Source: an uncultured Spirochaetota bacterium
GTDB lineage: Bacteria; Spirochaetota; Spirochaetia; SZUA-6; Fen-1364
NCBI GenBank assembly: GCA_963820525.1
Contig: CAWGAA010000001.1
Span: 3,072,001-3,136,000 of the forward strand
Reading direction: 5' to 3'
Length of the DNA stretch: 64,000 bases
Every line of letters starts with the position of its first letter. Within the stretch, counting starts at the first letter, position 1. A program made the translations under genes and the position numbers. Positions 4,981 through 36,376 of this stretch are shown here, in pieces. The notes below the pieces were generated by a model that did not search any database, was not told the DNA's origin, and saw nothing but the letters and a program-made list of their open reading frames with translations.

Positions 4981-5043
4981 GAAAAAAAGTATAGCACATG
5001 CAAAAGAAAACGCATATCGTGGCGAATGGGGAAGGGAGCACAG

Positions 5044-8616: not shown

Positions 8617-10540
8617 CCAATCTTCGACAGTTTGGCCCCCTTAAAAAGTGCATTCCCCTCGAATTTGCGGGGAATTTGAAGGTTTTTTTACAACTGGACC
8701 ACTTTATGTAGTGCCACGGAATTGGCAGTTTATGAAGAAAATGCTTGCACAGATGGCCTCTTCATGGTAGTATCCGTAGAGGGGGAGGCAGGCAATGTTC
8801 GTCCGCATCAAGAACTCGCACGGATACAAGTACCTTCAGATCGTTGAAAGCAAGCGTGAGGGCAAAAAGGTCAAACAACGTGTCCTCACCACCCTCGGCC
8901 AACTGGATGCACTCACCGCATCAGGCAAGATCGATGACCTCACCCGATCGCTGGCGAAGTTCTCCTCGATTCGAACGATCATCGATGCTCACCGCGAGGG
9001 CACCATCCAAGCGCACCGCACACTGTCCATCGGTCCCGCCCTTCTCTTCGACCGATTGTGGCAGCAGTTGGGGATCAAAGAGGCGATAAAGGGCCAAGTG
9101 GCCGCTCGCCCATGGCGCTTCTCCCTGGAACGGGCGATCTTCCTCACCGTCCTGCACCGCCTCTTCGATCCGGGAAGCGACCGCGCGGCAGAGCGCTGGA
9201 AGGAGGATTTCCAGATCAGCGGGACAGAGGGAATCGAGCTTCATCACCTCTACCGCGCCATGGGCTGGCTGGGAGAACAGAGCATCCAGCTCGGCCATGA
9301 TGCGCGAAGCCTGCGCTGCCGAAAGGACCTCATCGAAGAGGAGCTTTTTCGCCGTAACCGCGATCTGTTCAGCGAGTTGGAGCTGGTGTTCTTCGACACC
9401 ACGAGCCTGTACTTCGAGGGGCAAGGGGGAGAAAGCCTGGGACAGTACGGGCACAGCAAGGACCACAGACCCGACCTGAAACAGATGGTGGTCGGCGCGG
9501 TGCTGGACGGCACTGGGCGGCCGATCTGCTGCGAGCTGTGGCCAGGGAACCTCACCGATGTCACCTCCCTTATCCCGGTGGTCCAACGACTGAAGAGCCG
9601 CTTCGCAATCGCTTCGGTGTGCGTGGTGGCAGACCGCGGGATGATAAGCGCAGAGACGATCGAGAAACTTGAAACTGATGAGCTTGGCATGTCCTACATC
9701 CTTGGAGCGCGCATGCGCAAGGACAAGACGGTGCGCGATGAAGTGCTTCCTTCCTCTGAGAAGTTCCAAGTAGTCACAGGAGAGAAGAAGAAGCCTGGGG
9801 ATCCCTCCCCCCTATCGGTGCGGGAGCAGTGGGTGGGGGAGAAGCGTTACGTGGTCTGTTACAACGACGATCAGGCCCGAAAGGATGCCGCGGACAGAAA
9901 GGCCATCGTGGAGTCTTTGAAAGAGAAGCTCAAAAGCGGGGACAAGAGCCTCGTGGGCAATAAGGGCTACAGGCGATACCTGAAGTCCGCGGGAAAGGAG
10001 CACTTCACCGTCGACGAGGCCAAGCTCGCGAAGGAGCAGCTGTTCGACGGCATGTGGGTGCTGCGCACCAATACCGCGTTTGCCGCCGCGGATGTGGCAC
10101 TGAAGTACAAGCAGCTATGGATGGTGGAATCGATATTCCGTTCGGCCAAGAGTCTTCTGGAGACCCGCCCTATCTATCACAAAGTTGACGACACTATCCG
10201 GGGGCATGTGTTCTGCAGTTTCCTCGCGCTTGTTCTACGAAAAGAGCTGGAAACGAGACTTGAGAAGCACGGGGCCAAGCTGGAGTGGGCGGATATCAAT
10301 AGGGACCTTCGAGCACTGCAGGAAGTGGAAGTGGAAATGCATGGCAAGAAGCTGTATCTGCGCACCGACCTTCGGGGGGTATGCCACACGGTATTGCAGG
10401 CTGCGGGTGTCGCGGTGCCGCAGACGGTTCGCGAATGATCGCCATGCTAGGGGAAGTCGCGCTGTAGTGCCAAAGAAATTCCGTCGGCTTCTAATTCCTT
10501 ACGGGGCAAGTACTTCATTTTTCAAACTGTCGAAGATGGG
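8617..10540 (+). mobile_element. IS1634-family insertion sequence
   Basis: 18-bp terminal IRs CCAATCTTCGACAGTTTG / CAAACTGTCGAAGATGGG (1 mismatch); 5-bp target duplication CTAGA at 8612-8616 and 10541-10545. Confidence 0.9.
8795..10438 (+). CDS. IS1634-family DDE transposase
   Basis: YLQIVES...KVKQR N-terminus, FFDTTSLYFEG, GHSKDHRPDL, VADRGM, VESIFR..K...LETRPIYH. Confidence 0.92.
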   Translation: MFVRIKNSHGYKYLQIVESKREGKKVKQRVLTTLGQLDALTASGKIDDLTRSLAKFSSIRTIIDAHREGTIQAHRTLSIGPALLFDRLWQQLGIKEAIKGQVAARPWRFSLERAIFLTVLHRLFDPGSDRAAERWKEDFQISGTEGIELHHLYRAMGWLGEQSIQLGHDARSLRCRKDLIEEELFRRNRDLFSELELVFFDTTSLYFEGQGGESLGQYGHSKDHRPDLKQMVVGAVLDGTGRPICCELWPGNLTDVTSLIPVVQRLKSRFAIASVCVVADRGMISAETIEKLETDELGMSYILGARMRKDKTVRDEVLPSSEKFQVVTGEKKKPGDPSPLSVREQWVGEKRYVVCYNDDQARKDAADRKAIVESLKEKLKSGDKSLVGNKGYRRYLKSAGKEHFTVDEAKLAKEQLFDGMWVLRTNTAFAAADVALKYKQLWMVESIFRSAKSLLETRPIYHKVDDTIRGHVFCSFLALVLRKELETRLEKHGAKLEWADINRDLRALQEVEVEMHGKKLYLRTDLRGVCHTVLQAAGVAVPQTVRE

Positions 10541-10615
10541 CTAGAGATTTTCTTCGACGCATGCCATCCGTCACAATTGCATTCTTGCTAATTAGCTCTG
10601 GCTAGCAAACTGACC

Positions 10616-11224
10616 TTATTGTTGGGGCTTGTAGATGAAGGGTCCATCACTATCTTTATATATTTTGGTAAATTCAGGACCAATAGGAATGAGATATTTC
10701 TTGCTTTTCCTATACTCTGTCTTGGACGCAGTTTCTCTACAAACGAGTTGGGCAATTCTTGTTCCAGGATAAAGTGCGATAGGAACATTTGAGATATTCG
10801 CGAGTTCAAGAGTAATGCATCCCTTGAAACCTGGTTCAATAGTGACGGCTGTTGCAATTACTAGACCTATGCGCGCTATCGAAGATCTCCCTTCGATGGA
10901 AGCTTCGATATTTGCTGGGAGCCCTATATATTCAAACGTTGAGCCAAGCACCATTGTTTGCGGGTGGAGGTAGAACGGCGTTCCAAAAGGAACGACGACC
11001 TCTGTTTGTATAGACTTGATCTTTTCTTTGTCATGCATAAGAGATTTCGGATCAATTGCATTAATGTTTTCAATTCGAAATATAATGAATTGATTGGAGA
11101 GACGAAGATCAATTCCTATTTGATTGATCTGGAGATCACGGTCAAGCAATGGAGTTACTACGAGTTTACTCACATCGGACCGGTTAAGATATTCAATCAA
11201 TTCATTCTTAGACAAGGTGCTCAT
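10616..11224 (-). CDS. dcd: dCTP deaminase (trimeric dUTPase fold)
   Basis: IDLRL, EGRSSIARIGL, IEPGFKGCITLEL, RIAQL. Confidence 0.88.
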   Translation of the reverse strand: MSTLSKNELIEYLNRSDVSKLVVTPLLDRDLQINQIGIDLRLSNQFIIFRIENINAIDPKSLMHDKEKIKSIQTEVVVPFGTPFYLHPQTMVLGSTFEYIGLPANIEASIEGRSSIARIGLVIATAVTIEPGFKGCITLELANISNVPIALYPGTRIAQLVCRETASKTEYRKSKKYLIPIGPEFTKIYKDSDGPFIYKPQQ

Positions 11225-12530
11225 CAGCTGGACCTTTCGAATTCTGATACTCCGAGTCTACATAACTTGAAAAGAGAGACTTAAGAAGTAGACGCATTAG
11301 TATTTGATAATTCGTGATAAACTCATCACCTTTCGATATTTGATCGATCTTTTGGTAATATATCCATCCGGCAAGAATAATATCCGCCATTCCCACAGGT
11401 TTGCCGTGCAATTCATTAGCCGGAATGATATCGTCAAGCTTCAGGTACAATTCGTCGATTTGATTAGGATTGAGATAGTACTTTGGGACTTGGCTCTGAG
11501 CATAGGATATAATATCGGGAAGAGATGCCTTAAAAAGCTTGATCTCCTCTGCAATATCAGTCAGAGCTTTTTGATCCTCATTATCAGAAAGGTACTGCTC
11601 GATGTCCTGCAGATATCTTTTATAGTACTTTGAGCATTCGGACTTAGAGGTAGCTACGGGGGCCATCCTTCCGTCAATCTTTAAAATCTCTTCATATAGT
11701 ACTCTTATACGATACTTGATTGGCGGATAATAATTAGTAAATCTGCTGGGTAATTCTATTTTGCCTTCAAATATGGATATAAAATCTAAAGCAAATAGCA
11801 TCGAAGGGCCAAAGATAAGATATCCACAAATGTCTGAAAGAATCTCACGATACATACCTTCAAGTATCTTCATGCCTTCTATGGTCTTTTCATATGGACG
11901 GAATAGATCAGCGGGAAACTTCTTTCGGTAGTAGGTGCTCAGATGAACGTTCTGATCTAAAATCAGTTTCTTTGCTTCAGGTGTTTCTTTCCATCTATTA
12001 TGGTAGAAATGACCCAATTCATGACCGATCACCGAATAGAGAAGAACATTGGTCTTCTCGAGATAAGGAAACGAAAAGACATGAATTTTCTGAGTGGAAA
12101 ATAGGCTGCTAATCTCTTGTGCTCGAGTCGGGAATATGGTAAGTAGCACATTGCTTAAGGGTCTGATAAGATCGTCTGTCATAACGGAATAGTTAAAATG
12201 CCATTGCGGCCTGAATAAGAGTAGATAGTCGGTTCCAAATTGCTCCTTAAGCATGCGATCAAGATATGGAATAACACTCCATGGAATATTTGCAGTTGAT
12301 GCCCGTTCTATATAGCGAACACTAGGTATGAATCTGGTCGAAATGAATATGAACAAAACCTTGTATGTTGATTCCTCAATCTCACCAAAGTGATCAACAA
12401 AATACTGGATGAACTTCTTGTAGCTGTCTATTGCAAGCACACAGGATTGGTTATAAAAATCAACGGTCTTGATTTCATCGAGATAGTTTCTAGCGCTAAT
12501 GAGCTTTCTATATAGCTTATTCTCAATCAT
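11208..12530 (-). CDS. Hypothetical 440-aa protein with zincin-like HEXXH motif
   Basis: VIGHELGHFYH plus downstream EILSD...FGP; overlaps the dcd start by 17 bp. Confidence 0.75.
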   Translation of the reverse strand: MIENKLYRKLISARNYLDEIKTVDFYNQSCVLAIDSYKKFIQYFVDHFGEIEESTYKVLFIFISTRFIPSVRYIERASTANIPWSVIPYLDRMLKEQFGTDYLLLFRPQWHFNYSVMTDDLIRPLSNVLLTIFPTRAQEISSLFSTQKIHVFSFPYLEKTNVLLYSVIGHELGHFYHNRWKETPEAKKLILDQNVHLSTYYRKKFPADLFRPYEKTIEGMKILEGMYREILSDICGYLIFGPSMLFALDFISIFEGKIELPSRFTNYYPPIKYRIRVLYEEILKIDGRMAPVATSKSECSKYYKRYLQDIEQYLSDNEDQKALTDIAEEIKLFKASLPDIISYAQSQVPKYYLNPNQIDELYLKLDDIIPANELHGKPVGMADIILAGWIYYQKIDQISKGDEFITNYQILMRLLLKSLFSSYVDSEYQNSKGPADEHLV

Positions 12531-12547
12531 TTGTTGCGCGTGATTCT

Positions 12548-13004
12548 TTACGCATACTGAAGGGAAGATTGGCTATGCGAAAGTACGTTATAGTTTTCTG
12601 AGTAGATTTTGCTGATCTTCTCAAAGAAATCTTGGAGGTCTGTCGAGGCCTGCCCCTTGTAAAATTTGCCTAGGATTGAGATCAAAATCAGCGAGTTGCT
12701 CTCTAATCTGCGTAAAGTAGTTTTTGAGGGAATTGAGCTTTTCTCTGTTTAGCGGAGTTGTCAGGCTTTCCGTAATCTCAATGACGTCTTTGAGATTTGG
12801 GACGAATTGAAAAACACCCGTAATATCAGATTGATATATATCGACGCCAAGTGTGTCCAGTGATCTAATTAGCTGATCTAAGAATGCTAAACCTTCTTTT
12901 AAGTAGGCTTTAGAGGTTGGAGATAGTGGCGTTTTTGAAGTTATAAGGGTGTGTCGAATGTTATCAAAAATAACCTGAAGTCGAAATTCTTCAAGATTTT
13001 CCAT
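12548..13004 (-). CDS. Small helical hypothetical protein (probable frameshift near 12665)
   Basis: RBS GGGGAGG + ATG at 13004; an alternative frame FYKGQASTDLQDFFEKISKIY... continues to a stop at 12548, just upstream of the next gene. Confidence 0.6.
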
Positions 13005-13072
13005 GATCTGCCCCTCCCCTAATATATGTCCATTTATACCACTTCGGAGCACTCACTGCAAATACTTTTTTC

Positions 13073-13079
13073 GCATAAC
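13073..13079 (-). other. Isolated GTTRRRY-like core site starting the distal cassette
   Basis: Minus strand GTTATGCGAAA matches the GTT-N4-RRAA start of the other four cassettes. Confidence 0.55.
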
Positions 13080-13115
13080 ATTGTATTAAACTGCATAGGA
13101 CTCTGGCGCAATGGC

Positions 13116-13249
13116 CTATAGCGTCCTGCAAATATGTGACGCGGCCCTGAGGCCAACAAGGCCGAAGGGCCGTGTGGCGGAGCGGCGCGCTGCAGCGCCG
13201 CGGAACCCAAGGCGCCTACTGGCGCCGATGCACATATTTGCTGTTATGT
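13116..13249 (-). repeat. attC-like site A (one core degenerate, GTT to GCT)
   Basis: Arms GCAAATATGTG/CACATATTTGC, branched GC-rich interior closely similar to sites B and C; cyclase-like gene stop TAA lies in the inverse core. Confidence 0.8.
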
Positions 13250-14149
13250 GGAGCCCTGCGGTTGCGTGCGCCTTGATCGTATCTTTGTAACTCTATCTAA
13301 TTCTTTTGTGTATTCGGGCCAACTTGTATTGAAAGGTTTACTCTCATCCTTATTTGAAATGAAAGGATAGTGCAACTGACCCATTGTGGAGTTGATGTAC
13401 TCTTCAAGGTACTCCAGCAGTGTTACCTCACTCTGCGGAGTCGTGCCAGCCAACTCCATTTCTAGTTCGTTCAGTTTGTTATGCAGGTCGATCCAGATGA
13501 CTGGGTATTCCTTGTTTCCCAAGACGCCTTTCAAAACGACTTTGTTCTGACAAAAAAGTCGAATGTCATTTCTTCGAAGGGTCAGGAAGTTGTCCCTCAT
13601 CAAAAGTATGGCAAGCTCGACGGATATCACGAATTTACCAATTTCCGCAAATTTGGAGATTCTAAATCCGATGTCAATGGATTTTCCGATGAACTCTGTT
13701 CTTTCACTCTCTACTCTGGAGTTGTCAACAGGAGTATTCCCGGTCCACGCAGTTCCCTTTATCTTGAGCTCACTGGTCTCATTGAATCTCGCGATTGCCT
13801 TCCTAAATACATTGATGTACCACAGTATCAACGAATATTGGCTATCTTCAGCAGGCTTCACTTCTCGGAACGATTCAATGATGCTTATGAAAAACAGCAG
13901 CTCGTCACCATTGATTTTCCATTGAGAAGGAACGGGCAGCGTGAGTTCTCTCTTTTTGCCTGCATTGACCCTTATAGCAGCTCGACTGCATTCTTCTTTC
14001 AGTATTTGAGAAAATTCGCTGTAGAAGTCGCTAAGTGATACAGTCCAATCGCGATCCTGGTATTTTCGCTGAGTCGAATCAATTACGTCAACGCTCAGGA
14101 AGAGGAAAAAATCCTCTTTATTGACTTCTACAGGTTCATGTGGGCGCAT
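13244..14149 (-). CDS. Divergent class III nucleotidyl cyclase-like protein (single-gene cassette)
   Basis: FLSVDVIDST (first metal Asp), WKINGDE (second Asp), FIGKSIDIGFR (GxxVNxAxR-like), LKG; RBS GGAGG just inside the cassette end. Confidence 0.65.
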   Translation of the reverse strand: MRPHEPVEVNKEDFFLFLSVDVIDSTQRKYQDRDWTVSLSDFYSEFSQILKEECSRAAIRVNAGKKRELTLPVPSQWKINGDELLFFISIIESFREVKPAEDSQYSLILWYINVFRKAIARFNETSELKIKGTAWTGNTPVDNSRVESERTEFIGKSIDIGFRISKFAEIGKFVISVELAILLMRDNFLTLRRNDIRLFCQNKVVLKGVLGNKEYPVIWIDLHNKLNELEMELAGTTPQSEVTLLEYLEEYINSTMGQLHYPFISNKDESKPFNTSWPEYTKELDRVTKIRSRRTQPQGST

Positions 14150-14177
14150 CCATAGACCTCCTAGATCGCAGGGTTCC

Positions 14178-14307
14178 ACATAACGTCCCGCAAGTATACG
14201 ACTTGGCCCGAGGCCAACATGGCCGAGGGCCATGTGGTGGAGCGGCGCGCTGCAGCGCCGCGGAGCCCAAGCCGCCCGCCAGGGCGGCGAAGCACATATT
14301 TGCTGTT
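14178..14307 (-). repeat. attC-like site B (interrupted at its GTT by IS1182)
   Basis: Plus strand ACATAAC-GTCCC-GCAAGTATACG...CACATATTTGC-T-GTT; core continues as GTTAGGT at 16025. Confidence 0.85.
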
Positions 14308-16024
14308 GATTCTGTAGGAAAAGCCACGCGCCTACTTTACGCTATTTGATATCCAGCGCACAATAGCTTCATGGCGCGGTATAAGGATCATAATCAGGAT
14401 CAAGGCGAGTTTATTGTCGTCCAGTTCAGCGAGCAACTGCTTATGGATACCTTCGAATACACGCTCAATCACCTGATCAACGAGAAAATAGATTTATCAG
14501 CGCTCGATTCAAAGTATAAGAACGATCTTACCGGTGCTCCTGCATATGATCCTCGGGTTTTACTGAAAATCATTCTTTTCGCCTACTCCAGAGGCATATT
14601 TTCATCACGACGGATCATGGAGCTTTGCGAGACGAATATCATAGCCAAAGCGCTTTCGGCAAACTCCATCCCGCATTTCACGGTCATAGCGGATTTCATC
14701 TCATCGATGAAGGATGAAATCGCCGGCATATTTCTGAAAATCCTCATGGTGTGCCAGGAAATGGAGCTCATCGGCGGAAAGCTGTTTGCGATTGACGGAT
14801 GCAAGCTGCCGTCCAACGCGTCCAAAGAATCGAGCGGCACCTTCAGGGATCTCAAAAGGAGAAAAGAAAAACTTGAAAGAACGGTAAAACTGCTCATTCA
14901 AAAGCATACTGTAACCGACAGAGCTGAAACCGCATCAGGATCCGAAGTTTCGCCAAAGAAGAAAGCCATTGATAGGATCGACTCAAAGATCAAGCACATC
15001 GAGGACTTCCTTAAAACAGAAACGCCGAAACAGGGCAACCGTGGCAAGGAAATACAGTCGAATATCACGGATAACGATAGCGCAAAGATCAAGACTTCTC
15101 ACGGAATGATCCAGGGGTATAACGGGATCGCCCTCGCGGATGAACAAAACCAGGTCATTATAGCCACCGAAGCCTATGGGAAAGGGCAAGAACATGGGAC
15201 ATTCAAGCCCGTTCTTGAAATGGCGGAAGAGAATCTGAAAGCCATCACCGACAAGGAAGAACCTCTTTCAGGAAAGACCGTACTTGCGGACACGAATTAC
15301 TTCTGTGAAGAAAACCTAAAAACAGCCGCGGATAAGAAAATCGAGGCGATCATCCCGGACTACAACTTTCGAAAACGAGACGAGCGCTTCGTGGACAGGA
15401 AAGATCATTCGGGTATCGAGTATAAGTTTGGATTTCAAAATTTCACATATGATGAGAAAACAAACACGTATACATGTCCCAACGGGAAAACACTGAAACA
15501 TAGAGGACATGCAATACTTCATGGATCTTCGGGGCATCGTTATCAATCCAAAGCGTCCGACTTTAAGGGGTGTCGGTTTACAAATAAATGCTTTCATCGC
15601 AAAAAGAATAGCAGCGGCAAGCGGACACTCTTTATAGATGACAAGGATAATTCCACCAATTATTCGGCACAAATGATCCAGAAGATCGACCGGCCGGAGG
15701 TCAGGGATTTATATTCAAGACGGATGGCAATCATCGAACCAGTGTTTGCGAATATCACATTCCATAAGAGACTGAACAGATTCACTCTGAGAACGAAAGC
15801 GAAAGTGAATATTCAATGGCTGTTATATTGCATGGTTCATAATATAGGAAAGATTTCAAAGGCGATGTCTGGAGCGAATGCATGATGGAAAAGAAAATGC
15901 ACACCGATTGTCCGATGATCTATATCGATAGAGTAGTTTTCGCTTTCTGATCATTCATAAATCGTTTTTGAATCGAGTTTGAAGGAGAACTGTTGTCTTT
16001 TGGGCTATATTTTCCTACAGACTC
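14308..16024 (+). mobile_element. IS1182-family insertion sequence
   Basis: 15-bp IRs GATTCTGTAGGAAAA / TTTTCCTACAGACTC (1 mismatch), flanked by GTT on both sides. Confidence 0.88.
14371..15885 (+). CDS. IS1182-family transposase
   Basis: GAPAYDPRVLLKIILFAY..GIFSSR, AIDGCKL..NAS, ITDNDS, LADTNY, YTCPNGK, IEPVFANI. Confidence 0.92.
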   Translation: MARYKDHNQDQGEFIVVQFSEQLLMDTFEYTLNHLINEKIDLSALDSKYKNDLTGAPAYDPRVLLKIILFAYSRGIFSSRRIMELCETNIIAKALSANSIPHFTVIADFISSMKDEIAGIFLKILMVCQEMELIGGKLFAIDGCKLPSNASKESSGTFRDLKRRKEKLERTVKLLIQKHTVTDRAETASGSEVSPKKKAIDRIDSKIKHIEDFLKTETPKQGNRGKEIQSNITDNDSAKIKTSHGMIQGYNGIALADEQNQVIIATEAYGKGQEHGTFKPVLEMAEENLKAITDKEEPLSGKTVLADTNYFCEENLKTAADKKIEAIIPDYNFRKRDERFVDRKDHSGIEYKFGFQNFTYDEKTNTYTCPNGKTLKHRGHAILHGSSGHRYQSKASDFKGCRFTNKCFHRKKNSSGKRTLFIDDKDNSTNYSAQMIQKIDRPEVRDLYSRRMAIIEPVFANITFHKRLNRFTLRTKAKVNIQWLLYCMVHNIGKISKAMSGANA

Positions 16025-16049
16025 GTTAGGTGAAGGGCAGAACAGCAAA

Positions 16050-16547
16050 TTACCGATATGATTTTGCCATTTTATCCCTTTTCTGCAAAAATTCAGGTTC
16101 CAAATGTTTGGCTAATATTTTAACTATTAAAGATATAGCCTTATCTATATCTTTATAAATATCTGACTCCCAAATGCGAATGACATTCCAGCCGCTATGT
16201 ATTAATGATTTTGTGTTCTTAATATCTCTATCAATATTATTTTCGATCTTAGCAATCCAATATTTACTATTATAGCCCTTTATCAATTTCTTTCTTCTAA
16301 GATGCCAGTCTTTTCCATGCCAAAAATCTCCATCTACAAATACTACACATTTTTCTTTAGTAAATACTATATCAGGTATACCTGGCATAGTCCTCACATT
16401 TTTCCTATAGCGTAAACCGATTTTCCATAAATAATGACGAAGTAGTACTTCTGGCTTAGTATCCTTTTTCTTACTCGCTCCGCGTGCTTTAGCTGAGGCA
16501 TTTTCTGACTTTGGATATAATCCTTTAAATGATGCATTTTTATGCAT
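16050..16547 (-). CDS. vsr: Very short patch repair endonuclease
   Basis: DTKPEVLLR, PGIPDIVF, FVDGDFWHG, GWNVIRIWE. Confidence 0.92.
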   Translation of the reverse strand: MHKNASFKGLYPKSENASAKARGASKKKDTKPEVLLRHYLWKIGLRYRKNVRTMPGIPDIVFTKEKCVVFVDGDFWHGKDWHLRRKKLIKGYNSKYWIAKIENNIDRDIKNTKSLIHSGWNVIRIWESDIYKDIDKAISLIVKILAKHLEPEFLQKRDKMAKSYR

Positions 16548-16550
16548 GAT

Positions 16551-17540
16551 TTATCCAAATATCGCCTTATATAATCCCCCTAATTCTACAATCTCCATTT
16601 TTGATAATGGTAGAATATCAGTTAATTCTGACTTAAATCTAACATCGCTGACTTCTGCAGGAATGTTAGACGTAATTTGGGGAATTTCGATTGCATCATA
16701 TATACTAATAGTATTTAGAGCATTTGAGGAATCAAATCTTATGCGTATAGCATCTCTCCAATCTCTGCCTAAGCTCATCGTGATTATTTGTGAAATTCTT
16801 TCTTTTAATCTTTCTGATATATCCATACGCGAGGTTATTTTTTCCCAAAGATCTATGATGGAAAGGCCATTTGCTTTTTCATCTATCAGGAAAGAAACAA
16901 TCAGTATTCTATTGTTTTTCTTAGGAATTAATTGATCAAGATTGAAATTATGAATACGTATAGGACCTTTAGTCGATTTAACTTCTAATTGTTGTTCTCC
17001 ATTGACAAAGTCAAATAATTCATTCGGATCAGCGTGCCAAGCAGTTGCAGCTAAGTTAATATCGTGCGCATTAGCAATGAGAAATAGTTCACACCAAATG
17101 CCCTCAATAGAGCTTAATGGAGGAGCCTCCATTGATCTAAACAACTCAATTAGATTAGATATTATTAATAAAATGTCTATGTCTTTAGATTCCAAAGGCA
17201 TCAGTGAAATAATCCCAGATAACGCCCGCAAAAAGTATTCTCTTAATATCTGATCTGCTTTTGAGCATTTAATCATCGTGAGCCTTTCTGAAGCGATTGT
17301 TCCATCATTATTAATAATTTGGCACATACAACTGGGACGAAATGAAAAATATTTGAATTCTCTTGGAGGAATAGAAAGCTCGTTTGAATGGCTTTTAGTT
17401 GAGAATAAGAGAGCGGGATTTCCATAAGAATCTTTTGCAATATGAATATTGGGATGCCCAGGCAATACAAGTGCTGAATAGAATTCTCCAGAATCTTTAA
17501 TTTCTTTTAGATTAAGAAATAGTGAAAACAAGTCAATCAT
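16551..17540 (-). CDS. PD-(D/E)XK motif protein (DUF4420-like)
   Basis: GIWCELFLI, W...LFDF...LEVKST; follows the Z1 gene. Confidence 0.8.
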   Translation of the reverse strand: MIDLFSLFLNLKEIKDSGEFYSALVLPGHPNIHIAKDSYGNPALLFSTKSHSNELSIPPREFKYFSFRPSCMCQIINNDGTIASERLTMIKCSKADQILREYFLRALSGIISLMPLESKDIDILLIISNLIELFRSMEAPPLSSIEGIWCELFLIANAHDINLAATAWHADPNELFDFVNGEQQLEVKSTKGPIRIHNFNLDQLIPKKNNRILIVSFLIDEKANGLSIIDLWEKITSRMDISERLKERISQIITMSLGRDWRDAIRIRFDSSNALNTISIYDAIEIPQITSNIPAEVSDVRFKSELTDILPLSKMEIVELGGLYKAIFG

Positions 17541-19692
17541 TATTGTTCTCAGTATGTATAAGAATATCATCTTGCTGAGTAAGCCTTATAGCTACTGCGG
17601 GTACATTTTCATAATAATGATTATCATCTTCGATACGAAAAAAATGTATCTGAATCGTTGGCAAATCTTTCTGGAAAAATGCGCGATCGCCAGGATAAGA
17701 ATCAGCTCCAGAGCTTGAACGGCCTTGAAAAAGCTGCGGGATTATTCCTTTTGAAAGACGCCGCGTTCGCTTTAGGCCATAATGCATGAAATAGACTAAA
17801 CATTTCAAATTATTATCGAGATCAAGCATTGATTTTAGATTGCAATTAACATAGCAAAGGCCTATTGCATCTTCTTCATCGAGATATGATAGAGGTGCCA
17901 GTACATTCTCGAAAACTTCATTTAGAAAAGTGAAAGCCAATTTGTGTTGTGGAAACCTAGCATTTTCTTTGAATTGCATGTTTTCAAGAAGCTTTATAAG
18001 CTTAGCGTTGTGAAGACCTTCGCTGGGCGAATTATGCGGAGCTCGCGGTGCAAACCAATTATCCCCCAAATGTGGCCTTAGATAAGGTGTTGATAATATA
18101 TTATATCTTGTGGGTGCTAAGCTATGATCAAGATAAAAAAGTCTTCGCCATTCTTTTAAAGGGCGACCCCGATGAGCTTCTAACCGATTTCGCATATCTT
18201 GTTCATGCCTAACATAAGCTATATATGCGTACTTTACATCTGGGTGTAAATAAACTCTGCAAAAACCAAAATGTCCGCTATGATATCCAAAAAATCGCGC
18301 ACGTTGTTGTATCGTATCTGCTGTCCAACCACCTGGACCTCTAGGCATATAAGTTACAGTTAAACCTTTTACAGTATATCCACGACCTAGTTTCTCGCCA
18401 CCTACAAGAATATGTGAATATGAGTTTTGCCATTGAACTTCACGCCCTTCTATAGAATTAACTAAGGTTACAGTAGTTTGATTTATAGCTACAGGTAATT
18501 TGCCCTCAATTTGATTGAATGGCGGCAATGAAGAACAGGTACGACTTAAATCATCATAAGCGGTTCTAAAATCAGCCATTAATTCAATACGATCTGGTTC
18601 ATTCATAGCTTGTAATATTCTATGCCAGTTGTGCTTTATGGCTTCTATCCAATCATAATAATGACGATGTATAGCTATTTTTTTTGAAGCATGAACTAGC
18701 ATTGATCGATGCTCTTCAGAGTGAGAAATACGTCCAGCTGCTACGCCAATAAAATAAACTTGTAGCGCATGTAATAAAGACTCTGGAGGCTCTTCTGGCA
18801 TATGCTCATCATCAAAAAGATATGCTTGTGCAATTGTTTCAACATATATGCTGTTTTCAGCAAAAAACAGATCCCCACCTATGTATCCTTCACCAGGTGA
18901 AACAAGCTCTGCAAAATCTGCTGATAATGAATCTATTCTAGTAATTAGCAATGGAGCTTGCGGAGTTGCAGTGTATTGCAAGAAGGTATGAGATGGGAGG
19001 GCTTTTCTAAGCCCATCAATACTGACATAAGTTGCACTAGCATTTGGCTCATTCGGGCGTGTGTTCAAACTGGCCTGATCCGCTTCATCATCGAATATAA
19101 TAGAAGGTATTCCACCCAGATCGATTGAGCTTAGCAACTGTGTCAAATTATTTAAATGCCTGTAATTCTTCATTACAGTAATGAAAAGTGTTCGTCGGTC
19201 TTCATCAACATATTGATTACTTCGCCATTCTTCAATTAATGCTACGATAGCAGGTAATTCATTATCTTTTCGTGGGTTTTTTAACATATGCCACGTCCAA
19301 TCAGGCGATGCTGAACGCAAATGAGATTCCATTCTTTCACTATTTTGTGTTACGAGATTAGTTGTTATTCCAGCGATTAGAATAATAATTCTATAGCCAT
19401 TATCTTTTGCTAAAGCAGAAATAGCAGTCATCGATGCAGTTTTGCCACTTTGAACATACCCACATACAAGTCCAATCCCGGGATTCTCAGATGAAGTCGG
19501 TGGATTGCATTTAGATAGAATACGATGTGCCTCATCAATTAAGCGGTTTGCATCTTCCCCTGAGGGTAGAATCCCTTGAGTTATGAAATAATTCCTAAGT
19601 GAGTTTGTGACATTCCCAATTATTGGAACCCAATTACCATTCGAATCATGAATATTTATGATTTTAATAATTTCATTAGAGTTAATAGCCAT
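17533..19692 (-). CDS. Z1 domain-containing SF2 helicase-like/endonuclease subunit
   Basis: GYVQSGKT, DDEADQAS, YTATPQA, SMLVH, LGRGYT, DTIQQRARFFGY. Confidence 0.9.
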   Translation of the reverse strand: MAINSNEIIKIINIHDSNGNWVPIIGNVTNSLRNYFITQGILPSGEDANRLIDEAHRILSKCNPPTSSENPGIGLVCGYVQSGKTASMTAISALAKDNGYRIIILIAGITTNLVTQNSERMESHLRSASPDWTWHMLKNPRKDNELPAIVALIEEWRSNQYVDEDRRTLFITVMKNYRHLNNLTQLLSSIDLGGIPSIIFDDEADQASLNTRPNEPNASATYVSIDGLRKALPSHTFLQYTATPQAPLLITRIDSLSADFAELVSPGEGYIGGDLFFAENSIYVETIAQAYLFDDEHMPEEPPESLLHALQVYFIGVAAGRISHSEEHRSMLVHASKKIAIHRHYYDWIEAIKHNWHRILQAMNEPDRIELMADFRTAYDDLSRTCSSLPPFNQIEGKLPVAINQTTVTLVNSIEGREVQWQNSYSHILVGGEKLGRGYTVKGLTVTYMPRGPGGWTADTIQQRARFFGYHSGHFGFCRVYLHPDVKYAYIAYVRHEQDMRNRLEAHRGRPLKEWRRLFYLDHSLAPTRYNILSTPYLRPHLGDNWFAPRAPHNSPSEGLHNAKLIKLLENMQFKENARFPQHKLAFTFLNEVFENVLAPLSYLDEEDAIGLCYVNCNLKSMLDLDNNLKCLVYFMHYGLKRTRRLSKGIIPQLFQGRSSSGADSYPGDRAFFQKDLPTIQIHFFRIEDDNHYYENVPAVAIRLTQQDDILIHTENNND

Positions 19693-21221
19693 TATTTTCC
19701 GCTTTTTTTAATAGGCCCAGATAAAGACCTTAGAATCTGATTTAAGTTTCTACGTATCGTTCCTGCTTGCCTAACGCCTGCTTCTCTTGCTGTAATTTCT
19801 GCGATTGCCAGGCCTGCAGCTAGCCGAGTAAATGGTATTATTTCATCTCCATCTGGCGAAACGAAACGGTCCATGAAGGGATGTGCTAGATTCATACGAA
19901 TATGAACTTCAATTTCTGATTTCTGCTTGTTATTTTGAGATAGCTCATACCATTCTTCATGCGATATATCATCAATAAGCTCAATTGTTATAGACCAATG
20001 CTTAAGTGCGTGATTTACTTCAATTTTAACAGATGTACTCTTAGCTTTTTCGTCTTTAGATTTTTCAAGCCTTGTAGCTAGTGGCTCATCTTTAGGCTTA
20101 TTATTTAATTGTTCTTCTATTATCGGAGATAGGTGCTGTGCAATTATATGAGTTGCATCTTCGGGTGCTTCGCTAATAACTTCCTGTATCATGTTGCTAT
20201 GAGCCCGATAATTTGCTGCTTGATCAAGTAATGGAATTGGTTTTGTATTTAACTCCGATTTTAGCCATTTTAATATATCATCTTCCCAATCTTCCCACTG
20301 AATACCATCTTTAGTATGACTAACAGAAAATCCCTGAACTTCAAGCTCTCCAATAAGTCGCTGATAAACAAATTTATTAGCTTTTCCAAAAATATATTCT
20401 GGACGGTAAGCTTCGCCACAACTGCCCTGTATTAATCTCCTTCGCCTAAATAATGCAAAGCCAGCATTTGTAACACTTCCACGTGCAAGAATTCCTGCCC
20501 ATCCTTTAACGCTATGATCATTATTAAAAACCATATTAAAATTCTTTTGCCAAATTATTGGTTTATTGTCAGGAGTTGAATGATACGGTGCTTCAAGGAA
20601 AACAGGTGGTTCATAAATCAATGGAGTCCCATCTACTTTTATCTCTAATAAATTATCTCTGATAAACAAGCGATAAATGCTACCAAGATGATCCTTTATT
20701 TTGTCTAGCGTCCGTCCTTTTGGTTTAACCAGCAAATTACTAAGAGTTATTACAGTAAAGTGCTTCTGTTCATTAACTCGATTCTCTGTTGGCTGCAATT
20801 TTTCGATATTATTCTTAACTATCATTGGTATGTCAAATACTATTGACCTCTCTACATTTTCACCAATCGCTTTTGTTCTTACTATCCAAGTTCTCGCGAA
20901 CCAGCTAGCGGCTGCTTTCATGCCAAGACCAAATTCAGACAATCCAGAAGTATCTGGCGGGATTGCAGCTGGAAGAAAGGCTCTTGCATAATCACTTATG
21001 GCTATACCAGCTGCATTATCGCGAATCTCAATATAATCATCATGCAATTCTATCTCAACTAATAGCTTATAATACTTACCATCCAATTTTCTTAGGGCAG
21101 TAATATTTGAACAGCCACTTTGTAGGGAATTATCGACAAATTCTGCTAGCGCAAACCACGGCTTGTAATTCAGTCTTGCAAATGAAGCATACATAGCTAC
21201 TTCAGGTCTGATTATTATCAA
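19692..21221 (-). CDS. GHKL (MORC/MutL/HSP90-like) ATPase
   Basis: ALAEFVDNS, IRDNAAGI, EFGLGMKAA Bergerat-fold motifs. Confidence 0.88.
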   Translation of the reverse strand: MIIIRPEVAMYASFARLNYKPWFALAEFVDNSLQSGCSNITALRKLDGKYYKLLVEIELHDDYIEIRDNAAGIAISDYARAFLPAAIPPDTSGLSEFGLGMKAAASWFARTWIVRTKAIGENVERSIVFDIPMIVKNNIEKLQPTENRVNEQKHFTVITLSNLLVKPKGRTLDKIKDHLGSIYRLFIRDNLLEIKVDGTPLIYEPPVFLEAPYHSTPDNKPIIWQKNFNMVFNNDHSVKGWAGILARGSVTNAGFALFRRRRLIQGSCGEAYRPEYIFGKANKFVYQRLIGELEVQGFSVSHTKDGIQWEDWEDDILKWLKSELNTKPIPLLDQAANYRAHSNMIQEVISEAPEDATHIIAQHLSPIIEEQLNNKPKDEPLATRLEKSKDEKAKSTSVKIEVNHALKHWSITIELIDDISHEEWYELSQNNKQKSEIEVHIRMNLAHPFMDRFVSPDGDEIIPFTRLAAGLAIAEITAREAGVRQAGTIRRNLNQILRSLSGPIKKSGK

Positions 21222-22501
21222 ATCATATTCTCCTTAGCATGGCTTTTAGAAGGATATAAATTTTGCACAGTACTCCTTGGGCCGCGTCCGACACCAGGAT
21301 GATCAGAGTGATTTCCTTTAAGATAAAGGTATTTCTTTATGACCGGATAGCAACGAGAAGGAGGTGGACAATCCTCTCTATGAGGCGGCATTAATCGTAA
21401 AGTTAGTGGGATGCAATTTTCATTTAATAATTGCCTTCTTATTTCGAGGCCAAATAATTCTCCAATTAAGCAAGGCACTGCATTTCCTACTTGACGATGT
21501 GCTGAAGACCTATTTCCATAAATTTCATATCCATCAGGAAAAGTTTGTAAACGTGAGATTTCTTTGATACTTAGCAAGCGATTTCGCCAATGAAATGGAC
21601 CAGAAGCTGGTCCAGGACTAGCTTGTATGGTCCAAGACGGATACCTTTTTGATAATTTGAGTAGAAATGACCAGTACTTTGTCCTCCAGCCAAAAAGGGG
21701 GGTCCCATTACCACGATGAGTGTGCCATAGATAATTTTTTCCCTCAGGGATGCTTTTAATCAAATCTTTCCATTTTCCCCTAATTTGAAGGTCAGCAGAC
21801 CATTCATTTGTATCAAGATCACCAATTGCATCCCAGGAATTCCTATAAGGTTCAAGGCCGTCAGCATATCCACATATGGGAGAAGGCATATCGAGCATTT
21901 TTCCATTAATATCAGCGACAATAAAAATCCGTTTCCGTATTTGTGGAACACCATAATCTGCAGAGTTTATATAAAAGTCTTGTAGCTTATATTCAGTTCC
22001 TTTCTTTCTATTTATTCTTTCAATACCATCTTTAATTAATTCCAATCCAGATCTCTGCCTTCCATAAGCATTCCAAGATATCCCTTTTACGTTCTCGAGT
22101 AATATTACTCTTGGTAACGCTACCTCAACCACATTAAGAAAAGCTTGAAGTGTTTTTGTTCTCGGGTCACGTAAGCCAGCAGAGGTGCCATTAAACCAAT
22201 AGGTCGACTTTGAGAAAGGCTGACAAGGTGGTCCGCAAGAAAGTAGTGCGGTTTCTCCAGGTTGCAGGCCAACTTGTGATAATAGCTCAGAAGGATGAAT
22301 TCTAAAAATATCACCTGGATTGGTTAGAGTCCAAGAAGGATTATTCTTTGTTAATGTTTTTCTTGAGTCATCGTCAGCTTCGATACAGCCCTTAATACAA
22401 AATCCGGCATATTCTAGACCTAAATCCAAACCACCTGCTCCAGTGAATAATGATAAAACTAAATGTTCTGGTTTTTTTTTCTGCTTTAATCGTTTATTCA
22501 T
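21218..22501 (-). CDS. dcm: DNA cytosine-5 methyltransferase
   Basis: SLFTGAGG, GPPCQPFS, ENV, YGVPQ.RKR, RLQTFPD, QVGNAVP. Confidence 0.93.
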   Translation of the reverse strand: MNKRLKQKKKPEHLVLSLFTGAGGLDLGLEYAGFCIKGCIEADDDSRKTLTKNNPSWTLTNPGDIFRIHPSELLSQVGLQPGETALLSCGPPCQPFSKSTYWFNGTSAGLRDPRTKTLQAFLNVVEVALPRVILLENVKGISWNAYGRQRSGLELIKDGIERINRKKGTEYKLQDFYINSADYGVPQIRKRIFIVADINGKMLDMPSPICGYADGLEPYRNSWDAIGDLDTNEWSADLQIRGKWKDLIKSIPEGKNYLWHTHRGNGTPLFGWRTKYWSFLLKLSKRYPSWTIQASPGPASGPFHWRNRLLSIKEISRLQTFPDGYEIYGNRSSAHRQVGNAVPCLIGELFGLEIRRQLLNENCIPLTLRLMPPHREDCPPPSRCYPVIKKYLYLKGNHSDHPGVGRGPRSTVQNLYPSKSHAKENMI

Positions 22502-22896
22502 AATAAAAATGAATGGCTTCAATGGGTTTTTCAACGACCGCGGCCATGTACATATTGGATAAGACTTCAGCTATTGATATAGATTTAACGCTTGAATATT
22601 CCTTTAATGTCACCATATTGTCTTCAATAATCACCTTGATCACGGCATCGGTTTCAGTTGATTTGCGTTTACAGTTACCAGGATCGTGATCTATTCCCTC
22701 CTCTAGTTATGTAATATATCAGATCTTGACTATCATTGTACATTGTAAATTTTGGTCAATAGAAATCGGGACAATCACAAATCTCTACTGAGTTTATTAC
22801 TTAGCCTTGCAAGGATGTTTTTCATTATTGGGTAGAGCAAGAAACTGTCGTTGGTGACTGTTACATATGATACACACAAGTAGTGTTCTGCCTTTC

Positions 22897-23007
22897 ACCT
22901 AACGTTTCGAGCGTACACGACGTGGCCCGAGGCTAACAAGGCCGAGGGCCATGTGGCGGAGCCCGAGCCGCCCGCCATGGCGGCGAAGCGTGTACGCTCC
23001 GTTAGCT
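22897..23007 (-). repeat. attC-like site C
   Basis: Plus strand ACCTAAC-GTTTC-GAGCGTACACG...CGTGTACGCTC-C-GTTAGCT; perfect 11-bp arms; interior shared with A and B. Confidence 0.88.
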
Positions 23008-23015
23008 GAAGTGGA

Positions 23016-23536
23016 CTACGATCTTTTAAATCTTGTGGCATAAACTCTGCGTGGAAAATCGCCTTCTGCATACTCGGTTTTACTCGCATCTTTTACAATA
23101 TCTTCATTTGCGTACGCCTCTATTACTTCACCTATAAAAAGATTTTTATCTCCTGTTTCTATTTCTTGTTTAACTTTGCATTCAATATGAGCTACACACT
23201 CGGCAATAATAGGAGCTCTTACTTTTCGCGCTGGTTGTTGAGTTAATCCCGTTTCTCTAAATTTATCAAATTGATATCCTGAGTGCAAACCGCAATAATA
23301 TATTTTTGCTTTTAGCTGAGCGGGAGGAATATTTACAATAAATTCTTTATTACTTTTGATTAACTCATATGAAAAGGATTTGTTCCCTATGGCACAGGCT
23401 ATAAGTGGGGTCCCTTTGAGACAGGCATACAAAAGCTAACTGCGATGATATTTGATTTTATTTTTATCTCCCCGCAGGTTATTAAGAAATGTCTCATCGG
23501 CCACATAAATTCTAGATATTCGACATCAATATTCAT
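23016..23536 (-). pseudogene. Flavin reductase family protein cassette (one frameshift near 23410-23420)
   Basis: MNIDVEYLEFMWPMRHFLITCG...CMPVSK, then shifted frame PLIACAIG...EFIVNIP...HIECKV...GDKNLFIGEV. Confidence 0.8.
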
Positions 23537-23562
23537 TTTATCTAATCTCCCTTGTCCATTTC

Positions 23563-23757
23563 AGCTAACGTAAAGGGTTTACGACATGCCCCGTCCCGAA
23601 GGGCTGGCACAGGGGTTGCCCCGCAAAACATAGAAAAGAGTGTACCACACATCTTAGAGGACCGTAAGAAGATTTGATCTGCAAGCCCTGTGCCAGAGGG
23701 GCATGTGGCGAAGCCCGGAGCGACCGGAGGGAGCGGAGCGTAAACCCTATGTTGAAC
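23563..23757 (-). repeat. attC-like site D (long, different sub-type)
   Basis: Plus strand AGCTAAC-GTAAA-GGGTTTACG...CGTAAACCC-TAT-GTTGAAC; internal stems ACATGCCCC/GGGGCATGT and TGGCACAGGG/CCCTGTGCCA. Confidence 0.8.
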
Positions 23758-23787
23758 GAAGTCGCTCCGCCCGCGCTATGGGTTTTA

Positions 23788-24990
23788 TTACGCGCTGTTC
23801 CAATAACTTTCAGCGGTATTTTCCGGCGGGAGCTCAATAATCTGAATATTCGCGCTCTTGCAGCGGGGACATCTTTTTTCGATAGTCTCAGGCGCTTCCA
23901 AGAAAAAATCATACGATCGCTGTTGAGATTCTAGATCGATGCATAACAAACGACGGATGTATTTCAGATTCTCATTTTTGTGCCCGTTGCTCAAGAGGCC
24001 GTAAAATCGTATACGCTTGAATCCTTCCGGCAGCACATGCAGGAGAAATCTTCTCATGAACTCGGAGGCGCCAAGTGTCATTACCTTTTTCCGGTTTCTA
24101 TTCCTGTAGTCCTTCCATATAAAGCTCACGTTTCCGCCGGTGAAATTCAATATCCGTTTGTTGCTGATCGCTACCCGATGCGTATAGTGCCCTATATATT
24201 TCAGTACGCGTAACGGATTGGAAAACGGCTTTTTGGCGTAGACGATCCATTTTTTCGCATAACATTCATCCAACACCTTTGCAAACCCGGCTGTCTCTGC
24301 TGTCTTGCGTAACTTACCAAAGAAACTCAACTCTTTTGCTGCATATGCCTGTTTCAAATAATGCAGGTATTTACCTCTGAACAATCGATTGAGAATGTGT
24401 ATCGAGATAAAGAAGTTGTTCCTGCTTTCAATCCATGCGGATTTATCCCGGCTCAATCCCCCTCCGGTAACAATGCAGTGCAGATGTGGATGGTCAAGTA
24501 GGTTTTGGCTCCAGGTGTGGAGAATGGCGATAAATCCGATCTTCGCGCCGAGATTCTTCGGGTTTCCCGCGGCTTCTTGAAGAGTCTCGTTTGCGGCGTG
24601 AAAGAGAATGTCGTAGAGCACTCTTTTATTCTGGAGAATAAGGGAATTCAATACCGCCGGGACGGTGAAGACGATATGGAAATATTTTATGGGCAGAAGC
24701 TCTTGTGTCCGCTCGTAAACCCATTGCGCCTGCTTGCTCGCCTGGCATTTGGGGCAATGCCGGTTCCTGCATGAATTATAGGATATCTGTTCATACCCGC
24801 ATTCATGGCAAACAAGTTTATGGCCGCCCAATTTCGGACCGCGGCAGTTTATGATTGCGTTTACGACTTTCCAATGATCATAACTGATGCCTTTCAGTAA
24901 CTGGGTGCTTTGTCTGAAAACATCGGCGACTTCGAATTTGGGTCTTGGAAAAACCGTTGCCGCTTCAATATAGCCCATGCTGTATAACAA
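23788..24990 (-). CDS. IS91-family rolling-circle (HUH/Y2) transposase
   Basis: EVADVFR, SCRNRHCPKCQ zinc domain, HPHLH HUH motif, YIGHY tyrosine pair, RRFLLHVLP.GF.RIR.YG; exact start uncertain (24990 or 24978). Confidence 0.92.
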   Translation of the reverse strand: MLYSMGYIEAATVFPRPKFEVADVFRQSTQLLKGISYDHWKVVNAIINCRGPKLGGHKLVCHECGYEQISYNSCRNRHCPKCQASKQAQWVYERTQELLPIKYFHIVFTVPAVLNSLILQNKRVLYDILFHAANETLQEAAGNPKNLGAKIGFIAILHTWSQNLLDHPHLHCIVTGGGLSRDKSAWIESRNNFFISIHILNRLFRGKYLHYLKQAYAAKELSFFGKLRKTAETAGFAKVLDECYAKKWIVYAKKPFSNPLRVLKYIGHYTHRVAISNKRILNFTGGNVSFIWKDYRNRNRKKVMTLGASEFMRRFLLHVLPEGFKRIRFYGLLSNGHKNENLKYIRRLLCIDLESQQRSYDFFLEAPETIEKRCPRCKSANIQIIELPPENTAESYWNSA

Positions 24991-25053
24991 GCGGGAAACA
25001 TCTGTCTTGCTTTCATGGCGGCGAATGAAGACTAAGGCTTGATGAAAGCCATC

Positions 25054-25135
25054 GCGGAGCGATTTTGTTCAACTCGTTGAGTGTGAATTTCACCTTTCCA
25101 TTTCATTATAATCCTTCTTCCCCAATCATCAAGCA
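25054..25135 (-). promoter_or_regulatory. Head of array: sigma70-like promoter and terminal (attI-like) core site
   Basis: TTGATG (25132-25127)-16 bp-TATAAT (25110-25105) pointing into the array; palindrome GTGAAATTCAC 25083-25093; GTTGAAC core at 25073 with no linker upstream. Confidence 0.55.
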
Positions 25136-25476
25136 CATCTCGGTCGTATAGATAGGCATGGGAGTGCGCATTTCATGAACTATTATCTCGAGGCGTTCCT
25201 TCGGGAATCGAGGAATCGAGGGTATGTCACGGAGAAAACCGCCGCTAAAATCAAGAGCCCGCTTTGAGAATATCGTGAAATTCACGATACCAGCGCCATG
25301 CAGTCATTACGGGGAATTTCACCTTTGAGTATTTGAAGGACTTCAAAAATCTCGCCCGATGCGATTACGATCATCTTGGAGGACGGACGCGAGGGTGCGC
25401 GGCGCAGGCTTCCGGCAGACGCGGTTCAAGGAATAGACGGCCTCTTGTGACTTCAATGAATGAAGCCCTCCGCGAG

Positions 25477-36332: not shown

Positions 36333-36376
36333 AGCTTGAGCGCCGAAGGAATTCCCGCCGCCGCGCGCGGGAGACT

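Follow-up and report, generated by a model that had tools for sequence, protein, structure and literature searches.

The cassette array described here lies in a 64,000-nucleotide stretch of DNA from an uncultured Spirochaetota bacterium (the window, G000:C1:3072001-3136000, where G000 is the source genome and C1 one of its contigs; plus and minus strand refer throughout to the strands of this sequence). The two ends of each complete cassette in this array are complementary to each other and share a G opposite a T at position 11 of the plus strand. This observation is confirmed, greatly exceeds what chance would produce and is conserved in other genomes as well. The window probably holds a satellite integron-like array whose recombinase gene has been deleted to a remnant, and which belongs to a distinct attC class served by IntI/Xer-like spirochaete recombinases that lack the IntI domain.

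The array occupies ~10.5-25.1 kb of the window, a low-G+C island (G+C 0.33-0.50 compared to ~0.63 in its surroundings) in which all genes are encoded on the minus strand with the sole exception of one insertion-sequence transposase. G+C-rich imperfect palindromes of 103-187 nt are located between the genes, starting with ...AAC and ending with GTT... on the plus strand, and the region is a cassette array of the integron kind. No part of the window matches the IntI model TIGR02249; the nearest IntI genes with scores above its cut-off are located at C1:682092-683030 and C1:1954228-1955157, and an Rfam scan of the whole window matched zero families.

Complementary cassette ends and the G-T pair at position 11

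Four cassettes with inverted terminal repeats and a shared G-T mismatch at base 11 had been described in the original prediction, and their end pairs are located exactly where it placed them on the plus strand. In cassette 1 the 3' arm (GTT plus 15 nucleotides, 13243-13260) is identical to the reverse complement of the 5' arm (15 nucleotides plus AAC, 14167-14184) at 17 of 18 positions, and the corresponding figures are 19 of 20 for cassette 2 (16025-16044 and 22884-22903), 15 of 16 for cassette 3 (23001-23016 and 23554-23569) and 18 of 20 for cassette 4 (23751-23770 and 25054-25073). All five mismatches consist of a G opposite a T on the plus strand, with G in the left end and A in the reverse-complemented right end; four of them are at position 11, where the 3' arms of cassettes 1 and 2 have G and their 5' arms have T, and the fifth is at position 8 of cassette 4. 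The left end of cassette 2 (16025) adjoins an insertion sequence which split the attC site w2 at its GTT, and the prediction was correct in skipping the unit at 14308-16024, which is this insertion sequence. An unbiased scan of the whole window for inverted GTT...AAC pairs with no more than two mismatches in 16 positions, 60-9000 bp apart, returned seven pairs. Four of these are the claimed end pairs, and the other three (4573-5922, 35647-41516 and 53109-55000) are located outside the array and have their mismatches at positions other than 11. The same scan of an array on a second contig of the genome, C3, returned 23 pairs of which 21 have G/A at position 11. Genome-wide, G/A at this position is confined to three arrays of the same site type, except for one pair at C1:1345467 which is likely due to chance.

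The same palindrome family was found with nhmmer and a structural scan in a long array at C3:828-891 kb and in a short array at 2.09 Mb of C1 (C1b), the site counts being 4 in the window, 20+ in C3 and 3 in C1b. A curated sample of 20 distinct cassettes was drawn from these arrays (4 from the window, 15 from C3 and 1 from C1b), from which five extra copies of the Y2-transposase cassette, the second copy of the flavin-reductase cassette, one C1b duplicate, one cassette with an attC site split by an insertion sequence and sites with degenerate ends were excluded. With positions counted from the G of GTT, the cassette ends after GTT and before AAC pair over ~18 bp (median 17.5): Watson-Crick pairing amounts to 90-100% at positions 1-10 and 12-15, 80-85% at positions 16-18 and ~45% at positions 19-20, and is near background beyond position 20. 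Cognate arms, which belong to the same cassette, form 13.05 of 14 possible Watson-Crick pairs compared to 6.38 of 14 in 380 non-cognate combinations, and none of 10000 partner permutations reached the observed cognate mean, which shows that end-to-end pairing within the cassette is under selection. This bears out in part the proposal of a stem that extends outside the site core, in that the repeats are the outer halves of the attC stem and their extra pairing is selected. Most of the variable positions are occupied by three or four types of Watson-Crick pair. Position 11 is the sole position that is never Watson-Crick in the sample, and a G in the 3' arm is opposite a T in the 5' arm on the plus strand in 20/20 distinct cassettes.

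A covariance model of the site (R1) was searched over 92 genomes of the order and matched in 16 of them, all spirochaetes, while 122 canonical sites of G000 remained unmatched. Among these matches T(-11) is present in 65/66 distinct 5' arms and G(+11) in 61/64 distinct 3' arms. Cassettes with the same layout and the same G-T polarity are located upstream of related recombinase genes in four other genomes, whose products are 71, 69, 53 and 54% identical to the recombinase of G000 described below. The wobble is fixed in position and strand-specific, as is evident from the 20 cassettes, the other genomes and the count of G-T pairs on the two strands (see below), and selection on the position-11 wobble is well supported.

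In the predicted plus-strand fold an outer stem of 18-21 bp, in which AACG is paired with YGTT, is followed inwards by a bulge of 4 nt that is restricted to the cleaved 5' (R'-L') arm, then by an L stem of ~11 bp and a branched tip. The spacer thus measures 5 nt on the AAC (R'-L') arm and 1 nt on the GTT (R''-L'') arm. The L stems are mostly uninterrupted, with a single bulged base on the 3' arm in ~5 of 20 folds as judged by eye. An alignment of 23 in-array sites from five genomes contains 13 invariant columns, including T(-11), AACG, GTT and G(+11), and the arrays consist of cassettes bounded by RYYYAAC ... GTTRRRY in which AAC and GTT are invariant in all 23 sites. The conserved extrahelical G of the L'' box and the ~5-nt spacer on each arm, which are traits of canonical attC sites, are not found in these sites. 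In canonical attC sites ~5 unpaired or partly paired bases are present on each arm and the extrahelical bases are on the R''-L'' arm (PMC2727003), whereas the surplus bases of the sites described here are on the opposite, R'-L' arm.

The textbook pairing of canonical cassette ends is limited to the 7 bp of the R box. The G000 array at C1:683000-775000, which adjoins one of the two canonical integrase genes of this genome (IntI_b), with at least 122 canonical attC sites and 50 distinct end pairs, differs from this expectation in that its cognate ends pair over a median of 12 bp and reach background only by position 14; G-T at position 11 occurs in 0/50 of its end pairs. Among class 1 cassettes the ends of aadA5 pair over 11 bp and those of dfrA17 over 7 bp. 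The short-recombinase system is therefore not alone in pairing outside the 7-bp R box, and the original prediction cannot be followed where it took such pairing as the sign of a non-canonical architecture. Its ~12-bp extent in canonical arrays would fit a full recombinase-binding arm, and suggests that the circular cassette presents such an arm. What does set these sites apart is the ~18-bp length of the stem, the invariant G-T at position 11, the 5-nt/1-nt spacer and the association with a recombinase that lacks the IntI-specific domain, and in these respects the architecture is non-canonical and the short-recombinase sites are a distinct attC class.

Strand, crossover point and the short recombinase

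Several lines of evidence agree that the plus strand is the bottom strand of the sites and the minus strand the top strand, as had been proposed: the cassette boundaries, the G that follows AAC and the stability of the folds all fit this assignment. The boundaries are revealed by the cassette 4 unit, which consists of a Y2-transposase gene and the long attC site on its left and is present in six copies in the genome. What the six copies have in common is precisely the block C + interior ... GTTGAAC ... gene ... GTTCAA; their flanks diverge just outside AAC on both sides, and the right-hand attC site differs from copy to copy. In a duplicated C1b site the interior likewise stays with the 3' arm and the downstream sequence, whereas the 5' arm differs. 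Taken together, the boundaries of the Y2 copies and of the C1b duplicate imply that each cassette unites a gene with its downstream attC site, as read on the minus strand, and that crossover takes place at AA|C of the plus strand, although the exact bond inside AAC is not resolvable because AAC is universal. Position 25073 of the window is joined to another attC interior in metagenome contigs from two studies (those parts of the stretch which contigs X2-X4 leave uncovered do not count as absence). Crossover in integrons takes place at AA|C of the bottom strand and a conserved G follows the bottom-strand R' box (PMC2727003); nearly all sites of the type described here have G directly after AAC on the plus strand. 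Two other candidates for a test of the boundaries were set aside. The C3 copy of the flavin-reductase cassette is 90.7% identical only between GTT and AAC and is silent on which interior travels with the gene because there is no attC site on its distal side, and two GTTAAATGAC... cassettes are only ~77% alike and thus uninformative.

Folding of the reconstructed circle junctions on both strands, a further check that had been suggested, favours the plus strand in 20/20 cases by a mean of 6.3 kcal/mol. The minimum-energy folds contain 63 G-T pairs on the plus strand compared to 11 on the minus strand. The position-11 wobble is one part of this general strand asymmetry, and the only fixed part.

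The sequence that follows the first cassette on its right shares 98.3% identity with the C3 locus until position 25226 of the window, a stretch which covers an attI-like region and the first 17 codons of a recombinase gene. The attI-like junction region between the first cassette and the start of this gene spans 25074-25174 (plus strand), and is followed by a gene remnant with a 30-codon open reading frame (ORF) at 25175-25267 (plus strand) from which the interior has been deleted; only the N- and C-terminal ends are left, the last 13 codons resembling the C-terminus by eye. The intact C3 gene (C3:825826-826623) encodes a tyrosine recombinase of 265 amino acids, is located at the attI-like end of the array of 20+ sites and is divergently oriented from the cassette genes. 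All catalytic residues are present. In an alignment with IntI_a and IntI_b, the two IntI proteins of G000, ~40 amino acids are missing (gaps of 12, 19 and 9) over the region with the motif AL.RK.P..W.WQ..FP, which holds the IntI signature and is present in both IntI proteins, and the 265-aa recombinase accordingly does not contain the IntI-specific additional domain near patch III. It scores 191 bits against TIGR02249 (cut-off 265), in two pieces that skip model positions 179-237, and 202 bits against the archaeal XerA model (cut-off 220). The closest relative of solved structure is VchIntIA (2a3v), which is also matched in two pieces that skip residues 180-246, followed by XerA with a match in a single piece. 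Relatives of the same length are numerous and the named ones are all from spirochaetes. In a quick neighbour-joining tree (Kimura distances, 263 columns) the short family is placed outside the IntI clade and is monophyletic in 33 of 40 bootstraps, a tree too weak to tell loss of the domain from its never having been gained.

The arrangement of a recombinase gene beside an attI-like site, in divergent orientation to the cassettes, is found in C3, as the remnant in the window, and at the loci L009, L010, L011 and L101, and this fixed place at the ends of cassette arrays in five genomes argues against a housekeeping role of the Xer type. The site type is present in 9 of 11 genomes with the recombinase compared to 7 of 81 in which the recombinase is absent, in a set of genomes that are kin and in many cases incomplete. 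The short recombinase is accompanied by no IntI match above the cut-off in three genomes (G028, G076 and G074; 87-95% complete), and in G000 the canonical IntI_a and IntI_b genes adjoin arrays of a different, canonical attC type. A consensus promoter match at 25132-25105 (minus strand) points towards the array, in a scan of 10400-25400 that yielded no more sites than shuffled sequences. Near-palindromic GTGAATTTCAC-like motifs are located at 25080-25096, 25272-25285 and 25313-25329 and flank the recombinase gene on both sides in C3 as well as in the window; possible roles are those of binding sites or of termini of a unit that includes the recombinase.

Cassette contents and mobile elements in the array

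From left to right on the plus strand, the array begins with the attC-like site w1 (13108-13257; 127.8 bits with R1), which has AGC in place of AAC as its 5' triplet and probably reflects degeneration of a site at the array's distal end. Cassette 1 contains an ORF of 302 amino acids without a family match (13244-14152, minus strand) and is followed by site w2 (14182-14307, plus strand; 120.1 bits at 14170-14318), in which AAC, a 5-nt spacer, L stem, branched tip, L stem and 1 nt precede GTT. Cassette 2 is a single 6.9-kb cassette (16025-22903) that carries a restriction-modification-like defence module of five genes (16050-22534, minus strand) which encode Vsr, DUF4420 (nuclease-like), Z1/helicase, HATPase_c_3 and C5 cytosine methyltransferase proteins. 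Site w3 (22901-23003, plus strand; 108.9 bits) separates it from cassette 3 (23001-23569, minus strand) with a flavin-reductase-like ORF at 23016-23432, and the long-form site w4 (23567-23753, plus strand; 53.6 bits), a constant companion of the Y2-transposase cassette, leads on to cassette 4 (23751-25073, minus strand) with the ORF of an IS91-family Y2 transposase at 23788-24990. Beyond w1 the distal end of the array consists of a dCTP-deaminase-like gene (10616-11224) and two ORFs of 440 and 143 amino acids without a family match (to 13052). Neither cassette 1 nor any of the three ORFs between 10.6 and 13.1 kb yielded a PADLOC match. No attC site follows the genes at 10616-13052, and an IS4-like DDE transposase gene (8795-10438), by which the array may have been truncated, lies just beyond them.

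The array harbours two kinds of mobile element. The insertion sequence in the GTT of w2 (14308-16024, plus strand; terminal inverted repeats GATTCTGTAGGAAAA / GAGTCTGTAGGAAAA) encodes a DDE transposase of 504 amino acids with DDE_Tnp_1_6 and DUF772 domains (14371-15885). Elements of this kind are located at an attC GTT in three places, with GTT on both sides: in the window, at C3 ~860.9-862.6 kb and at C3 ~875.3 kb; the junctions in the window recur at a second copy, located in C3. In a metagenome contig, the end of the insertion sequence is followed by the start of another cassette. It looks like an attC-targeting insertion sequence of a family not known for this behaviour; IS1111-attC elements and group IIC-attC introns likewise target attC sites, but the element described here belongs to DDE_Tnp_1_6/DUF772 and is neither of the IS110 family nor an intron. 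The second element is the Y2 (rolling-circle) transposase of cassette 4, a protein with Y2_Tnp and Zn_Tnp_IS91 domains, whose gene is contained in an otherwise ordinary cassette along with a long attC site. Members of the IS91 family have a Y2 HUH transposase and ori and ter ends of their own, but this unit terminates at the AAC/GTT of attC sites, and its own attC site is of the same family as the others. It is the most multiplied cassette in the genome, with copies at 23567-25072 of the window, at C1:2097889 and at C3:859723, 838997, 837052 and 828232, and occupies the first place beside the attI-like site in the window as well as in the C3 array.

Many cassette starts in C3, and positions 13074-13122 of the window (minus strand), display on the sense strand GTTAT.GGCCATTGCGCC followed 15-17 nt on by a TATAAT-like hexamer, such that the outer stem doubles as a -35-like TTGCGC. 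This TTGCGC-N15-17-TATAAT motif is an observation by eye only, because the promoter and terminator scan of 10400-25400 did not rise above shuffled sequences.

Proposed mechanism, alternatives and known systems

Each cassette reads on the plus strand as C, attC interior, GTT-arm, antisense gene and arm-AA, and in the excised circle the two arms would thus meet around the cassette's own attC interior. The long stem could form only where the cassette ends are brought together, either in the excised circle or with the gene looped out in single-stranded DNA. It is proposed that the folded bottom strand of the circle is the substrate for insertion at the attI-like site and that the short recombinase is the enzyme which carries it out. 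The G-T pair at position 11 would be situated near the outer edge of a binding arm of 11-13 bp, where it may be read by its shape or its bases. It could help both in binding of the R arm and in discriminating the bottom from the top strand, as the bottom-strand stem with G-T would be intact and the top-strand stem with A-C would be broken. The wobble together with the one-sided bulge may replace the extrahelical bases that are read in canonical IntI by the domain absent here. A wider and more tentative reading would make this system a second kind of integron, run by a short IntI/Xer-like lineage which either never had or has lost the domain for extrahelical bases, and whose own site grammar would comprise a long R stem specific to each cassette, a bulge on the cleaved arm alone and an obligatory G-T at position 11 that signals strand and arm to the enzyme.

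A number of observations weigh against these proposals. The position-11 wobble contributes only ~1.3 of the 6.3 kcal/mol of strand asymmetry, and a strand choice based on stability would therefore not need it. The long stem is unable to serve the usual excision because, beyond the R box, non-cognate arms as they are arranged in the array show poor pairing. The two canonical IntI proteins of G000 are also possible actors on these sites, and work on IntI reportedly ties its I2 helix to recombination of single-stranded attC, such that an enzyme without this helix might prefer duplex DNA. The site occurs without a recombinase match at E <= 1e-40 in seven genomes, and the recombinase without a site match in two. 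Position 11 has exceptions in 3/64 3' arms and 1/66 5' arms. The counts are not independent events since the genomes are related, and weak matches lean slightly towards T(-11) and G(+11) because the covariance model was built from sites with these bases. A distal cassette of L101 in G028 (3497-4114) has A-T at position 11 and no recognisable attC site on its far side.

In a first alternative a Xer-like enzyme acts on double-stranded DNA, G(+11) and T(-11) are separate base-specific contacts in two half-sites instead of a wobble pair, and the complementarity merely reflects one protein binding to both arms. Base-specific contacts would explain the near-invariance of the two bases equally well, the recombinase is without the IntI-specific region and has XerA as its best whole-length solved relative, and the consensus 5' arm presumably resembles the XerC arm of dif. 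Positions 4-10 and 12-18, however, vary between cassettes and co-vary within them, and sequence-specific reading of a duplex fails on this covariation. The excess of G-T pairs on one strand, moreover, extends throughout the site, and inspection of the junctions by eye, though no dedicated dif search was made, revealed nothing like dif, a single duplex site of ~28 bp in which two 11-bp arms surround a centre of 6-8 bp and on which housekeeping XerC/XerD act. A duplex read-out is thus unlikely.

The covariation is open to a second interpretation that is compatible with the proposed insertion of folded circles. Before excision, the ends of one cassette would pair in single-stranded DNA, loop out the gene and align the flanking attC sites, such that exactly one cassette is excised and the wobble tunes or marks the stem. 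The long stem is indeed possible only between cognate ends, which in the array flank the gene and not the attC interior, and a canonical array also has cognate pairing of ~12 bp. Synapsis in cis would nevertheless require single-stranded loops of up to 6.9 kb for cassette 2, and the circular form is the simpler account of the same complementarity, which makes this interpretation rather improbable.

The same low probability is assigned to an ordinary integron, in which canonical IntI moves the cassettes, the part of the short recombinase is that of a bystander or regulator, and one attC lineage has inherited the G-T pair as a quirk. Two IntI genes of G000 are above the family cut-off, IntI is described as accepting diverse attC sites (PMC2727003), and Cury et al. 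2016 concluded that domain-less recombinases beside attC sites are not IntI, with only four recombinases in an intermediate position of the tree and each of these associated with fewer than three attC sites (PMC4889954). Against this, the attC types are segregated, the type described here being located beside the short recombinase in G000 and four other genomes, and the three genomes G028, G076 and G074 are without an IntI match above the cut-off, although they are only 87-95% complete. A neutral quirk would also be expected to drift to G-C or A-T in some of the 60+ arms, whose neighbouring positions vary freely. That the inverted repeats are the termini of small transposons moved by a transposase is hardly credible: one of the four units, of which the genome has six copies, does encode a Y2 transposase of the IS91 family, but the other three contain no transposase, the repeats differ between units, and all unit boundaries, including those of the Y2 unit with its identical layout, coincide with the AAC/GTT of attC-like hairpins.

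The defining trait of integron integrases is an additional domain for reading the extrahelical bases of folded attC sites, and programs use this IntI domain to separate integrons from integrase-less clusters. A conserved recombinase without the domain heads an array of 20+ cassettes in G000, and its family heads arrays in several spirochaete genomes. If the enzyme is active on these sites, the system would be a natural experiment on how strand choice and polarity are encoded in single-stranded DNA, with a single base pair as a simple candidate determinant; the definition of the integron would widen, and a part of the many integrase-less clusters may be explained. Should it truly be a second kind of integron, the IntI-specific domain would not be required for single-strand cassette recombination, and many arrays filed as integrase-less may have an unrecognised enzyme. 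In the literature covered, which includes passages of PMC2727003, PMC8352920, PMC4889954 and PMC7439510 (supplements aside), a fixed wobble in an attC stem that reaches beyond the R box is not described, and neither are arrays whose recombinase has no IntI domain.

The system is reminiscent of sedentary chromosomal integrons such as the Vibrio cholerae repeat (VCR) array. As in these, cassettes consist of a gene and an imperfect palindrome bounded by ...AAC/GTT..., the bottom-strand crossover AA|C is followed by G, a divergent recombinase gene is located at one end, cassette starts are complementary to cassette ends and long sites have a branched tip (following the definitions in PMC2727003). 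It differs from them in a recombinase without the ~40-aa IntI-specific region, in the 5-nt versus 1-nt spacer without a conserved extrahelical G in L'', and in the length of the R stem and its invariant G-T at position 11 (~18 bp, compared to ~12 bp and G-T in 0/50 end pairs in the canonical G000 array). The window array, with at least two attC sites and no IntI gene, would be classified among the clusters of attC sites lacking integron integrases (CALIN; PMC4889954). The C3 array is probably classed likewise, yet both differ from such clusters in a conserved non-IntI recombinase or its remnant at the attI-like end, and the C3 array has 20+ sites. In the case of CTX phage, XerCD integrates single-stranded DNA at dif, where a folded hairpin mimics the duplex site, one strand is exchanged and replication resolves the product. 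This is a precedent for a Xer-type recombinase without the IntI domain that acts on a folded single strand, but it relies on the XerC/XerD proteins of the host and a single chromosomal dif site, without a cassette array and without the attI/attC logic of the arrays described here.

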